Part shown: positions 33,393-36,818 of the stretch, in pieces
Layout of the letters: every line of letters starts with the position of its first letter
Numbering within the stretch: position 1 is the stretch's first letter
DNA from: Candidatus Bathyarchaeia archaeon
GTDB lineage: Archaea; Thermoproteota; Bathyarchaeia; 40CM-2-53-6
Assembly (NCBI GenBank): GCA_049513715.1
Contig: JBEKVV010000002.1
Span: forward strand, 160,001-224,000
Direction: 5' to 3'
DNA length: 64,000 bases
Translations under genes and position numbers: made by a program
The notes under the pieces: generated by a model
Seen by the model: the letters and a program-made list of their open reading frames with translations, nothing else
Database searches by the model: none
What the model was told of the DNA's origin: nothing

Positions 33393-34457
33393 TTGGAAGC
33401 TAGAAAAGTTCAGAGGGTTGGATACTCAACCCTGACCGTGTCCCTGCCAAGGGATTGGGTCGAGGATGTTAAACTGAAAGCCGGCGACATTGTCTCAATC
33501 AAACGGGAAGATGACGGGACCCTAAAACTGATCCCAGGAACGGAGCATAAGCGGGACGAGGTCAAGAACTGCATCGTCAATGCGGACATGTGTAACTCCG
33601 ATCACCTTCTCACCCGAGTCATAACCGCCAATTACATTCTCGGGCACGACACAATTCAAGTCCTCGCCAAGGACGAATTGAAGAAACATCATCTGGAAGA
33701 AGTGCGAACGACGACGCAACGTTTGACGGGGTTAAGCATTGTCGAGCAAACCCTCAAATCGGTGACCCTTCAGAGTTTTGTTGACCCGACTCGTTTTCCG
33801 ATTTATGGACTCATGCGCCGCCTACACATTATCATCACATCCATGCTAGATGCGTCAATGAAGGCATTACTTGAGAGGCGTCCTGAACTTGCCGGCGAAG
33901 TCGCTCATATGGAGGAGGAGTCTGATAGGATTTATTGGTTGATTGTTCGGCAGCTACTTCTCGCAATACGCGACCGCAGCGTAGGATCTAAGATTGGCAT
34001 CGAATCGCCAATCCACATACCCGGTAACAGGGTCGTGGCGAAGACGCTGGAGGAGATGGCGGATTCAGCCGAGAGCATTGCTAACGAGGTCTTGGTACTG
34101 AAGGACAAGGAAATTGTGAGCGAGGCCATTATACATGATGTTACAAGGTTCTGTGCGCAGGTCGTCAAGATTTCTGAACAGAGCATGAAAGCGCTACTAA
34201 CCTCGGACATTATTCTTTCGAACGAGGCTGTTGAGTTGGTGGAGACTGCGGAGAACGATGAAAGGAAACTCACGCAGAAGATTCTCACTTTGAAGGATGT
34301 TGGCGTGGCCACCAGCTTACGAATAATAGTCTGGAACCTCGGCCAGATCAGCAAGTACTGCAGAATAATCGGTGAGATCACTATAAACAGGATAATGGAG
34401 AGGCCCTCACAAATCTGCGAATACCTCCCAATCCCAGAAGGCAGAGCAGCAAGCTAG
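33393..34457 (+). CDS. AbrB/SpoVT-PhoU fusion regulator, paralog 2
   Basis: RKVQRVGYSTLTVSLPRDWV, EEESDRIYWL, LEEMAD; clear paralog of 23179-24273. Confidence 0.88.
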   Translation: MEARKVQRVGYSTLTVSLPRDWVEDVKLKAGDIVSIKREDDGTLKLIPGTEHKRDEVKNCIVNADMCNSDHLLTRVITANYILGHDTIQVLAKDELKKHHLEEVRTTTQRLTGLSIVEQTLKSVTLQSFVDPTRFPIYGLMRRLHIIITSMLDASMKALLERRPELAGEVAHMEEESDRIYWLIVRQLLLAIRDRSVGSKIGIESPIHIPGNRVVAKTLEEMADSAESIANEVLVLKDKEIVSEAIIHDVTRFCAQVVKISEQSMKALLTSDIILSNEAVELVETAENDERKLTQKILTLKDVGVATSLRIIVWNLGQISKYCRIIGEITINRIMERPSQICEYLPIPEGRAAS

Positions 34458-34498
34458 CCACGTACAGACGCGCCTAACAGAGAAGTAAGAGCCTACTA

Positions 34499-34918
34499 CT
34501 ACTCGCGTGGCAGAATTTTACCAATCATGATGAGGTCTGCGTGGACCTCGTAGCCAACCGCCTTGAAGAACTCGATTGACTTAGTGTTCGACTTGTAGAT
34601 CTGCGCATTCACTTTCTTTGCTCCTTTCTTCTTCAGCCGTATCTCCAGTTCTGCAATCAGGAGCTTGCCGATTCCTTTTCGTTGATGTTCGGGTTTTACG
34701 GCTAGGTGGTTGATCCAGCCGCGGCGGCCGTCCCAAGCACCCATAACAACTCCTATGATCTCCTCATGATCTGTCGCCACAATGAATAAGTCAGGGTCGC
34801 GCCGAAGTTTCAGCTCGACTCCTTCTAGTTCGTCGCCGGGCCTGATGATTAGCCCAGCATTTTTCCACAGTCGGGTCACCCTCTCGTGGTCACTGATCTT
34901 GAATTCTCGGATACGCAT
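34499..34918 (-). CDS. GNAT acetyltransferase
   Basis: GAWDGRRGWINHLAV.PEHQRKGIG acetyl-CoA motif. Confidence 0.9.
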   Translation of the reverse strand: MRIREFKISDHERVTRLWKNAGLIIRPGDELEGVELKLRRDPDLFIVATDHEEIIGVVMGAWDGRRGWINHLAVKPEHQRKGIGKLLIAELEIRLKKKGAKKVNAQIYKSNTKSIEFFKAVGYEVHADLIMIGKILPRE

Positions 34919-35037
34919 TGCAGGAACGCCCTTTGTTACGGCATAAGGGAAAAGCAGAAAGATGGACGTTTCGGCACAGATTCTCGAAGAGGGGTTTGGA
35001 GCTTCCTAGAGCGCCCCGGTCAAAGAGGCGTGAATGT

Positions 35038-35178
35038 TGGCGCCGCCGGCAGGGTTCGAACCTGCGACCAACGGGTCACTGTGTTCTGGCAGCTTAACAG
35101 CTTCAGCCCCCACTGGCTTGGTAGGGTCCGCTGCTCTAACCACTGAGCTGGCGTCTACGCGGTTGCGTATACGGCGGC
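35038..35178 (-). tRNA. tRNA-Asn(GTT) with three introns (8/9, 30/31, 37/38) and encoded CCA
   Basis: Exons 35178-35171, 35149-35128, 35101-35095 and 35076-35038 join to GCCGCCGTAGCTCAGTGGTTAGAGCAGCGGGCTGTTAACCCGTTGGTCGCAGGTTCGAACCCTGCCGGCGGCGCCA (76 nt, full cloverleaf). Confidence 0.9.
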
Positions 35179-35220
35179 TCGTGCCTTTCGGCGGCGTTCG
35201 AGCCATTTCCCTTTCAGCGC

Positions 35221-35228
35221 TTTATTAA
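35221..35228 (-). promoter_or_regulatory. Putative TATA box for tRNA-Asn
   Basis: TTAATAAA on the minus strand about 43 nt upstream of the mature 5' end. Confidence 0.45.
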
Positions 35229-35261
35229 TGATTGGTCAACTTCCCGAATCAAACATTCCGT

Positions 35262-35471
35262 TCATTCCTTCTTTTGGGCAGCTCCACAGAAAGCACACTT
35301 GCGAACGCCCTCGGGAATCAGCGAACTGCATGACTTGCAATTTACAAGCTTCTCAAGCTCAATAAATGGCTCCGCTGAGCTCAACTGTCTGCTCCTCCTG
35401 AGCCAGAGAGACAGAAGGATTAGAACCAGCACAGCGGCAGCCGCAGTGACTGCAACAATCGTCTCGTCCAT
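35262..35471 (-). CDS. Small membrane-anchored zinc-ribbon protein
   Basis: ATG at 35471; one TM helix, then CKSC...CAFCG. Confidence 0.65.
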   Translation of the reverse strand: MDETIVAVTAAAAVLVLILLSLWLRRSRQLSSAEPFIELEKLVNCKSCSSLIPEGVRKCAFCGAAQKKE

Positions 35472-35552
35472 GAAGGCCACCAGTGAAGGTTGAATTGTAG
35501 GTCTACATATCTCTTGCAAACGCAAGAACGAAGCAGGCCTGAGTGGAAACTG

Positions 35553-36818
35553 ATGGGTCATCTTGAAACCGAGGGCTTCCAAAGGGTAAGCACCGTCGAC
35601 GAGGGACTCCGAGTCTTCCTTGATGCAGTGGGCAACCCAAGAATTAGGGTCGAGACTGTTGCACTGGCTCGAGCTATTGGGCGGGTTCTGGGTGAAGATG
35701 TTATCTCAGACCGGTATCTGCCTGGAGTCGATCGCTCAGTTGTCGACGGATACGCGGTGCGTTCAGCGGACCTTCAAAACACTTCGAAGGAAAAACCCGC
35801 TACACTGAAGGTAGTCGGTGAAAGCCGACTCGGCAAGCCATGCAAACTCGCCTTGATTTCGGGAGAGGCTGTAGCGATGGCTACGGGCAGCATGATGCCA
35901 TCTGGGGCCGACTCAGTTGTCATGGTCGAAGAAACCACTGCCTTGCCAGATCACCGAATAAAAGTTCGGGCTTCCGCATTGCCAGGTCAGCATATTTCCC
36001 GGAAAGGCGAAGACGCCGAACCAGGAAAGCAAATCCTACGGAAAGGTAGGCGCCTTCGGCCACAGGACATCGGCATCATGAAGGCTTTAGGCCACACAAA
36101 ATCGCGGGTTGCGAAGAAACCGAGAATCGGCATCATCTCGACCGGTGATGAGCTGGTAGACTCCCCTGCCAGGTTGAGACTGGGAAAGATAGTGGATCTG
36201 AATCGTCCCATCCTTTCAGGCCTCGCTGAAGAATTGGGGGCTGTGCCAGTTGACATAGGAATTGCAAAGGACAACGAAGGAGAAATCATGAATGCTCTTC
36301 GGAGGGCGTTGAAGGTTTCTGATGCGGTCTTGATCAGCGCTGGGTCGTCGGTAGGGAAGAGGGATTTGATCCCGAAATGCATCAATCAGCTCGGAAAGCC
36401 GGGAATCCTCATCCACGGGGTGGCAATGCGTCCAGCTCTGCCAACAGGCCTTGCAGTAGTCAAAGGCAAGCCCGTAGTATCGCTGCCAGGCTTCCCAGTG
36501 TCAGCAATGATCGCCTTCCGCGCCTTCTGCCGACCACTAATCGAACGGCTCTCTGGAGGTCAAATGCAGAATGAGCTCACTGTCAAAGCCGTACTGAAAG
36601 GTTCGATTAACGGAATCCAGGGCAACAGAACCTACGTCAGGGTCTCGCTCAGTCATTCACCGGACGGGCTACTGGCAGAGCCATTGAAGATCCAACGCTC
36701 TTCAGCGTTAATGAGTATGGTCGACGCGAACGGAATCGTCACAATCCCAGAAGGCGTTGCCTCAGTTGAGGCAGGGCAGGTGGTTGATGTGGCAGTAATT
36801 GGGGAAATACAAATGTAG
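35553..36818 (+). CDS. moeA: Molybdopterin molybdotransferase MoeA
   Basis: GRVLGED, DRSVVDGYAV, TGSMMPSGADSVVMVE, STGDEL, LPGFPVSA; ATG at 35553. Confidence 0.95.
   Translation: MGHLETEGFQRVSTVDEGLRVFLDAVGNPRIRVETVALARAIGRVLGEDVISDRYLPGVDRSVVDGYAVRSADLQNTSKEKPATLKVVGESRLGKPCKLALISGEAVAMATGSMMPSGADSVVMVEETTALPDHRIKVRASALPGQHISRKGEDAEPGKQILRKGRRLRPQDIGIMKALGHTKSRVAKKPRIGIISTGDELVDSPARLRLGKIVDLNRPILSGLAEELGAVPVDIGIAKDNEGEIMNALRRALKVSDAVLISAGSSVGKRDLIPKCINQLGKPGILIHGVAMRPALPTGLAVVKGKPVVSLPGFPVSAMIAFRAFCRPLIERLSGGQMQNELTVKAVLKGSINGIQGNRTYVRVSLSHSPDGLLAEPLKIQRSSALMSMVDANGIVTIPEGVASVEAGQVVDVAVIGEIQM

Follow-up and report, generated by a model that had tools for sequence, protein, structure and literature searches.

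A copy of the 5′ acceptor strand lies in the predicted leader of a tRNA-Asn gene with an 8/9 intron in a Bathyarchaeia archaeon

The tRNA-Asn(GTT) gene of a Bathyarchaeia archaeon is interrupted by three short introns of the bulge-helix-bulge (BHB) type, the first of which falls between nucleotides 8 and 9, and its predicted leader contains an exact second copy of nucleotides 1–7, the 5′ strand of the acceptor stem. The introns, the helices of their BHB motifs, the copy, its place behind a predicted transcription start and its link to introns at 3/4, 8/9, 9/10 and 10/11 can be read directly from the DNA analysed here (the window, a stretch of 64,000 nucleotides) and from related genomes; what the copy does is deduced from comparison. 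Within a reading in which the splicing endonuclease EndA excises all three introns, we consider it probable that the copy acts as a placeholder strand that would free nucleotides 1–8 for the splice motif. The notable feature would then be a conserved surrogate acceptor strand that appears to go hand in hand with acceptor-proximal introns in various isotypes and lineages.

Results

A tRNA-Asn gene with three BHB introns

The gene occupies positions 35178–35038 of the window (minus strand, 141 nt). After excision of 35170–35150 (21 nt), 35127–35102 (26 nt) and 35094–35077 (18 nt), 76 nt remain, for which ARAGORN gives a tRNA-Asn(gtt) fold with an encoded CCA, as a preliminary description of this DNA had proposed. 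The same result was obtained with an independent, purpose-built cloverleaf aligner, which admits inserts of at least 10 nt at any junction and makes no use of the BHB motif: it returned the identical three inserts with a score of 49.6 bits. Standard tools overlook such genes, since neither ARAGORN nor Rfam (above threshold) called a tRNA at this place in the unspliced window, and a genome-wide search with RF00005 yielded a sub-threshold, partial match of 27.7 bits. The four exons comprise nucleotides 1–8 (35178–35171), nucleotides 9–30 with the D arm (35149–35128), nucleotides 31–37 with the anticodon GTT (35101–35095) and nucleotides 38–76 (35076–35038), the last including nucleotides 66–72 (35048–35042), G73 (35041) and the CCA (35040–35038).

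The BHB pairings listed for the three introns in the preliminary description all hold on recomputation. At 8/9 the motif is relaxed, with one C-A mismatch in a central helix (CGCC/GACG, 3/4 pairs) to which the precursor contributes nucleotides 3–6, an inner helix of 5 bp, and an outer helix of 4 bp that includes nucleotides −2 and −1, the last two of the leader spacer (35188–35179). The participation of these two leader nucleotides, likewise noted before, is borne out by their pairing here, but they are dispensable in some relatives. The 30/31 motif has a complete central helix (4/4), an inner helix of 6 bp and an outer helix of 2 bp, and the canonical 37/38 motif has, in the precursor, a complete central helix (4/4) with inner and outer helices of 1 bp each. 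Removal of the inserts restores the cloverleaf, and each has a 4-bp central helix (relaxed, 3/4, at 8/9) and at least one flanking helix; judged on these features, they are members of the archaeal BHB tRNA intron class.

Other gene architectures were rejected. A split, trans-spliced tRNA does not fit exons that are colinear within 141 nt behind one TATA-like box and that have no duplicate elsewhere in the genome; a permuted tRNA does not fit the normal exon order and an upstream element that copies the 5′ strand rather than the 3′ half; and group I or II self-splicing introns do not fit inserts of just 18–26 nt and the lack of an Rfam match in the window. The genome contains one GTT gene, whose exons and first intron occur once genome-wide at up to two mismatches, which answers the earlier question of whether this is the sole tRNA-Asn; a ‘tRNA-Asn’ called by ARAGORN on another contig (C3) is a mis-spliced tRNA-Arg(TCT). 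Our best reading is that the gene is the functional, single tRNA-Asn(GUU) of this archaeon and that its three introns are spliced by the predicted EndA.

Position 8/9 is shared by many relatives

In the window gene taken alone, the first boundary can also be drawn at 9/10 without altering the mature RNA; BHB geometry favours 8/9 over 9/10. Among 91 unique related tRNA-Asn genes with an 8/9 intron (taken from fetched loci of related genomes, so that counts across genomes are not independent), 9/10 is impossible in 61 and 7/8 is possible in just 12, which identifies 8/9 as the shared site. Geometry and comparison thus support the position originally assigned. The introns of these 91 genes are 16–46 nt long; the central helix has 4/4 pairs in 51 and 3/4 in 40, and the outer helix has 4 bp in 60, 3 bp in 21 and 2 bp in 10. 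The inner helix covaries (first pair T-A in 42, C-G in 40, T-G in 5), and the exons are conserved while the intron loops vary.

The preliminary description had regarded 8/9 as a very unusual site; far from being a one-off, it recurs in the same genome (tRNA-Cys and a tRNA-Leu) and in relatives. The survey of related genomes suggested at the time turned up a BHB-type pattern (acceptor strand, 10–40-nt gap, BHB-compatible end) in 85 of 301 genomes of the class and in none with the reversed control, the leading wildcard of the pattern losing about a quarter of the sites. An intronless Asn-type 5′ pattern matched 115 of the 301, tRNA-Phe genes and a few chance matches included, and within the same order such intronless ends amounted to one chance site among 87 genomes. 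A wider contig scan for the 8/9 pattern, which does not bound its distribution, gave at least 120 stretches, mostly chance bacterial matches (L074 and L144 were dropped as artefacts); the tRNA-Asn genes among the matches listed are of the Bathyarchaeia type. When the phylum was searched (401 genomes, a perfect GGYG helix being required), a minority of rows was decoded and the other rows looked like chance; by eye, G395 and G423 were the only genomes outside the class with an 8/9 intron in tRNA-Asn.

A copy of the acceptor strand at the predicted transcript start

The preliminary description had overlooked an exact copy of nucleotides 1–7 (GCCGCCG) at 35195–35189 on the minus strand, seventeen nucleotides 5′ of +1, which we propose to be a decoy for nucleotides 66–72. 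In the minimum free energy (MFE) fold of the sequence from 35200, the copy pairs with 66–72 while nucleotides −2 to 13 enter the 8/9 rod, and the adjoining C35196 can pair with G73. A copy with at least 6/7 identical nucleotides precedes 91 of 91 tRNA-Asn genes with the 8/9 intron versus 4 of 55 without it, the latter being a sample of 30 loci taken automatically and 40 picked by coordinate, including the four most copy-like leaders, from which the intron-bearing L225 at a contig end was removed (56 to 55). None of ten tRNA-Phe genes with a similar 5′ strand has such a copy. The median energy of the leader/3′-end duplex is −20.9 kcal/mol for tRNA-Asn genes with the 8/9 intron versus −7.9 kcal/mol for those without it.

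Within the 91 genes, the copy lies 8–31 nt from +1, is identical to nucleotides 1–7 in 80 and shares its first four nucleotides with them in all 91. Deviations are mostly C-to-T changes opposite G, which keep the pairing, or loss of the last pair; some copies mismatch 66–72. In 78 genes the pairing runs on for 1–4 nt into G73 and the CCA, where the true nucleotides −1 to −3 do not match, and plain duplication of the 5′ end is therefore a strained explanation. Copies have decayed in intronless sister genomes (G276, G185, G174 and G223; also G263:C41 and G256:C4), the decay being graded in the neighbours G185, G174, G223 and G256. Two of the four tRNA-Asn genes that have a copy and no 8/9 intron, those of G276 and G263:C41, belong to families with intron-bearing members; of the other exceptions, the copy in G043 lies directly behind the TATA box and that in G074 is absent from sister genomes.

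The window gene is preceded by a TATA-box-like element (35228–35221, minus strand), the match starting 33 nt before the copy. In the 73 relatives with the 8/9 intron and such a match, the median distance from box to copy is 34 nt (interquartile range 31–35), and that from box to +1 is 50 nt versus 40 nt in genes without the intron (50 of 54 matched). With the promoter about 10 nt further upstream and a 34-nt spacing, the transcript is expected to open with the copy, and transcription of the window gene would begin near 35199. A contig from an RNA run of a close relative covers 35035–35199 in unspliced form, with five differences from the window, all in intron loops; the molecule may be DNA, and since such contigs show neither start nor strand, the end at 35199 is a weak hint to the start site. 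Contigs of two RNA runs in which this type of genome has a small share contain no spliced read or joint across tRNA-Asn, their uncovered parts being uninformative.

The copy accompanies proximal introns of other isotypes and lineages

In the host genome (2.79 Mb, 11 contigs, 99.4% complete, 8.8% contaminated) the aligner reduced 2,086 candidates to 46 credible tRNA genes, 45 of them with inserts. Twenty of the 46 automatic calls have three or four inserts, some of which are variable arms, and a gene with three introns, singled out in the preliminary description, is therefore ordinary here. The six strongest leader/3′-end duplexes among the 46 genes belong to exactly the six genes whose first intron lies at 3/4 (Gly-CCC), 8/9 (Asn, Cys and a Leu) or 10/11 (Glu-CTC and Trp), with energies of −24.8 to −16.6 kcal/mol and the next gene at −14.4; each of the six copies matches the acceptor strand of its own gene (chance 1 in C(46,6), about 1e-7). 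In this genome no leader copy was found where the BHB does not involve the 5′ strand, for example with a first intron at 14/15, 15/16 or 68/69. Two calls were revised: an apparent 12/13 intron without a copy in tRNA-Ser(GCT) is better placed at 15/16 (4/4 pairs), and a ‘10/11’ intron in a tRNA-Leu on contig C5 is really at 8/9 (4/4).

The same association was found in 40 relatives together with this genome. The copy is present in 21 of 21 intron-bearing tRNA-Cys genes versus 0 of 5 without the intron, in 14 of 14 versus 1 of 9 for tRNA-Glu, and in 18 of 19 (one being misaligned) versus 0 of 10 for tRNA-Gly. These counts derive from 90 loci, several of which gave no target gene (for example L345, L352, L353, L355 and L392, and further L394, L395, L396, L401 and L408), while L378 and L386 were misaligned. 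One of the loci, L407 (G022:C203), holds a tRNA-Glu(CTC) that is without the 10/11 intron of its genus and has kept a perfect leader copy, likely a case of recent, precise intron loss. At L396 (G002:C86) a tRNA with a CAU anticodon is interrupted at 9/10 by an intron of 30 nt, and its acceptor-strand copy abuts directly, both being absent in relatives of the same genus; this recent gain may reveal how intron and copy arise.

In tRNA-Gly(CCC) of the host genome (G000:C1:573337-573481, minus strand; compared over loci L360–L377) the central helix of the 3/4 intron uses leader nucleotides −3 to −1, and by eye the helix shows a two-sided change, C-G versus T-A, between this genome and its relatives. 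In tRNA-Asp(GTC) (G000:C4:144551-144653, plus strand; L328) a 30-nt intron at 68/69 interrupts the 3′ acceptor strand, with a BHB of 4/4 pairs, an inner helix of 5 bp and no leader copy.

Outside the class, G395 (placed there although one of its proteins is labelled Ca. Bathyarchaeota) yielded 30 decoded genes, of which five have a proximal intron: 8/9 in Asn and Leu, 9/10 in two Lys and 10/11 in Glu. All five are accompanied, by eye, by a copy or complement; that of Glu is weak (−13.6 kcal/mol), within the range of background leaders, which reach −15.8, and counts against the placeholder reading. In G334, of the same genus, the 32 decoded genes include no proximal intron and no strong duplex, the strongest being −13.4. 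A search of ten Thermoproteota genomes for Glu/Asp-type genes gave 13 genes in seven genomes. Eight of these have a 3/4 intron of 21–23 nt with a 4/4 helix, and all eight have the copy (one 31 nt upstream), versus none of the five without the intron, where the match is at most 4/7. A PaREP1 gene close by, together with the 3/4 site already on record (PMC4090602), suggests that the genomes with this intron are Pyrobaculum-like.

Splicing machinery and order of intron removal

The genome encodes RtcB, the archaeal RNase P RNA and two proteins with the EndA catalytic domain (PF01974). One, of 186 aa, is closest among solved structures to the alpha subunit of Aeropyrum pernix EndA (E 2.6e-41), with which it aligns in the loop insert and in the Tyr-His-Lys triad, whose roles are described in the accessible sections of PMC3241643; the second is by eye without the His and was taken as beta. 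Of the 120 best homologues, the three that bear a taxon name are all labelled Bathyarchaeia. By likeness to the (alpha-beta)2 enzyme of A. pernix (PDB 3p1z/3ajv; PMC3241643, as far as available), the best structural relative of the catalytic subunit, the enzyme would be a tetramer. The need for a broad-specificity EndA, pointed out earlier, would be answered by this predicted two-subunit enzyme, whose catalytic subunit is A. pernix-like and has the specific loop.

Ordered splicing, also anticipated in the preliminary description, is supported by the window gene: the outer helix of the 37/38 motif grows from 1 to 7 bp after removal of the 30/31 intron, and the 30/31 motif is unaffected by removal of the 37/38 intron. 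As the former is completed only in this way, the 30/31 intron most likely leaves first and the 37/38 intron follows. Among the 91 tRNA-Asn genes with the 8/9 intron, 90 have the 30/31 intron (at or aligned near the site) and 63 the 37/38 intron, never without the former.

A proposed role for the copy and its energetic cost

To form the 8/9 BHB, nucleotides 1–8 would have to pair with the intron and with nucleotides 10–13. Because the central helix is made of nucleotides 3–6 and the outer helix of nucleotides 1–2 with 10–11, the 7-bp G+C acceptor stem must open; nucleotides 1–8 cannot form the BHB while 1–7 pair with 66–72, which would be why the transcript begins with a copy of 1–7. This copy, a partner for 66–72 on a par with the true strand, would hold 66–72, and often G73 and the CCA, as a placeholder, while EndA would cut at U8 and before A9 and RtcB would join the exons; the 30/31 intron would leave before the 37/38 intron. 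Tertiary folding would then drive the real strand to displace the copy, and cleavage by RNase P at the true +1 would make the exchange irreversible. As exchange and RNase P cleavage come last in this scheme, 8/9 splicing would precede final 5′ maturation.

Folding was consistent with part of this scheme. In the 40 of 91 precursors that were folded, the copy pairs with 66–72 with a probability of ∼1.0 and the true acceptor stem has a probability of ∼0, as compared with a median of 0.42 when the copy is scrambled. In nearest-neighbour terms the full BHB becomes cheaper with the copy in 84 of 91 genes, the median saving being just 1.2 kcal/mol (7.0 versus 8.3). The central helix of the 8/9 motif exceeds a probability of 0.5 in only 3 of the 40 precursors, and as the BHB seldom dominates the fold, its capture is still left to EndA. 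In the spliced RNA, modelled without tertiary energy, the copy beats the true strand in 40 of 40 (by 4.3 kcal/mol for the window gene, median 6.4); with the leader trimmed to the copy, the cost is 2.7 kcal/mol here (median 4.4). Release of the copy would therefore need tertiary folding, RNase P acting on the native fraction, a first cut at the copy, or a helper. The small computed gain for the BHB, the copy winning after splicing and the lack of a spliced read speak against the placeholder reading. To these we add that its order, splicing before trimming, is the reverse of that reported for Methanopyrus kandleri, whose ends are trimmed before intron removal (PMC3695527, in the portion available).

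Discussion

The most serious alternative, which we hold to be unlikely, is that the copy is functional but mainly protective, shielding the free 3′ strand and CCA from decay or from premature RNase P or RNase Z. It would account for the small gain of the BHB (median 1.2 kcal/mol), for the extension of pairing to G73/CCA in 78 of 91 genes and for the copy beside 3/4 introns, which already split the 5′ strand, and pairing of a leader with the 3′ RCCA slows bacterial RNase P (PMC9433436, as far as available). It sits less well with the folding model, in which the copy abolishes the competing acceptor stem, and with the lack of a copy where the BHB spares the 5′ strand (first introns at 14/15, 15/16 and 68/69). 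Protection is compatible with the placeholder reading, and the two are not exclusive. That the copy is instead a neutral scar of intron gain, left by duplicating a few nucleotides of the tRNA 5′ end as the intron arrived, seems improbable to us, even though it is identical to nucleotides 1–7 in 80 of 91 genes, comes with each independent proximal intron and is perfect in one Glu gene lacking the intron (L407): it is retained across many families while the spacer varies from 8 to 31 nt and the flanks diverge, its changes are mostly wobble-compatible, its complementarity extends into G73/CCA, unlike the true −1 to −3, and it decays where the intron is absent.

We give still less credence to the upstream copy being the real mature 5′ strand, with spacer and second copy forming a fourth intron in the acceptor stem. 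Folding prefers the upstream copy even after splicing, and its first four nucleotides equal the true strand in 91 of 91 genes, yet the insert would shrink to as little as 8 nt, some copies mismatch 66–72, and a conserved BHB does not emerge in any register: for each cut from 0 to 7, four central pairs form in no more than 6 of the 91 genes, compared with 51 (and 40 more with three pairs) for the 8/9 site. It is hardly credible, finally, that we are dealing with a pseudogene or that the 8/9 insert stays in the RNA. The contigs from the two small-share RNA runs contain no spliced reads or joints, the 8/9 central helix has a C-A mismatch and the genome is in 11 contigs with 8.8% contamination; but a genome that is 99.4% complete has no other Asn gene or exon copy, the exons are conserved while the intron loops vary and the inner helix covaries, and intronless Asn-type 5′ ends are nearly absent in the order (1 chance match, 87 genomes).

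If the placeholder reading is extended to the other proximal introns, a general design rule can be drawn up, which we put forward tentatively and with some doubt: introns whose splice motif draws on the 5′ acceptor strand (3/4 to 10/11) would be retained only where the transcript begins with a matching surrogate strand and the promoter has shifted upstream, an arrangement that would have arisen many times in Bathyarchaeia, in a neighbouring lineage and in Thermoproteales. Maturation would require an additional step, either an exchange of strands or cleavage by RNase P at two sites, perhaps aided by a helper, since the surrogate duplex is computed as more stable than the native stem. The placeholder reading would explain tRNA introns at sites where the splice motif has to open the tRNA's most stable helix, and would add a selected cis-element and a forced order (splice, swap strands, trim) to archaeal tRNA maturation. 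Because the same element adjoins the known 3/4 introns of Pyrobaculum-like genomes, it is testable in cultured organisms, and because each new proximal intron arrives together with its matching copy and a displaced promoter, it bears on the way in which tRNA genes acquire introns.

Ordered removal of multiple introns was reportedly described by Tocchini-Valentini and colleagues in 2009 for pre-tRNA-Pro of Thermofilum pendens. In Cyanidioschyzon merolae, likewise, one BHB is completed after another intron is removed, and the 37/38 intron tends to be last (PMC3728597, in the sections available). What differs from both is an added constraint here, which would tie splicing to removal of the 5′ leader. 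Split and permuted tRNAs (Nanoarchaeum equitans, Caldivirga maquilingensis, T. pendens; PMC4090602 and PMC3218864, each in part) are alike in having leader or trailer flanks selected to pair for EndA; in those genes, however, the flank belongs to the BHB or links two halves, whereas the present gene is colinear and its copy, placed outside the BHB, would replace an exon strand.

The nearest known introns are the non-canonical BHB introns of Archaea, for which the accessible text of PMC4090602 lists 30/31 and 37/38 among the sites and names 3/4 as an extreme case; those of Thermoproteales, treated in the same text, share with ours the 4-bp central helix, two 3-nt bulges, short length and occurrence of several per gene. 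Position 8/9 is not in its text list, although its Figure 2 and older surveys may include it, and its section on introns, as available, makes no mention of an acceptor-strand leader copy. A full-text literature search of partial reach, with the key intron surveys lying outside it, found no description of such a copy. Asgard archaea have up to five introns per tRNA gene (bioRxiv 10.64898/2026.10.13.758758) and, from the portion of that preprint available, resemble the present genome in that nearly all genes are interrupted, many by several non-canonical introns; they are a different lineage, however, with acceptor-stem and junction inserts pooled as ‘other’, and the word ‘leader’ is absent from the main text as we had it.

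Gene neighbourhood and other tRNA-like loci

The flanks of the tRNA-Asn gene (window 33393–36818) consist of housekeeping genes, namely an AbrB/MazE-PhoU regulator, a GNAT acetyltransferase, a small membrane protein without a Pfam match and MoeA, with no mobile element seen among them; SMC/ScpA/ScpB-like and ribosomal genes lie further on. One related assembly, G263, has two tRNA-Asn genes, with and without the 8/9 intron (G263:C25 and G263:C41; L220 and L253), and its bin may be contaminated. In the host genome, extra sequence in the variable region, aligned as a long arm, occurs in tRNA-Met(CAT) (G000:C1:289579-289685, minus strand) and tRNA-Cys(GCA) (C1:746945-747087, minus strand) and probably represents further introns. 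Repeated tRNA-like 3′ fragments with T-arm motifs are found at G000:C5:206495-206658 (minus strand), C1:892084-892348 (plus strand) and C3:165897-166079 (plus strand); two of the three are near-identical on different contigs, and they are probably ends of mobile elements. At G000:C4:150379-150586 (plus strand) the 3′ part of tRNA-Lys(TTT) is duplicated, introns included, ∼2 kb downstream of the gene, a layout that suggests an attachment-site-like duplication of a small integrated element.
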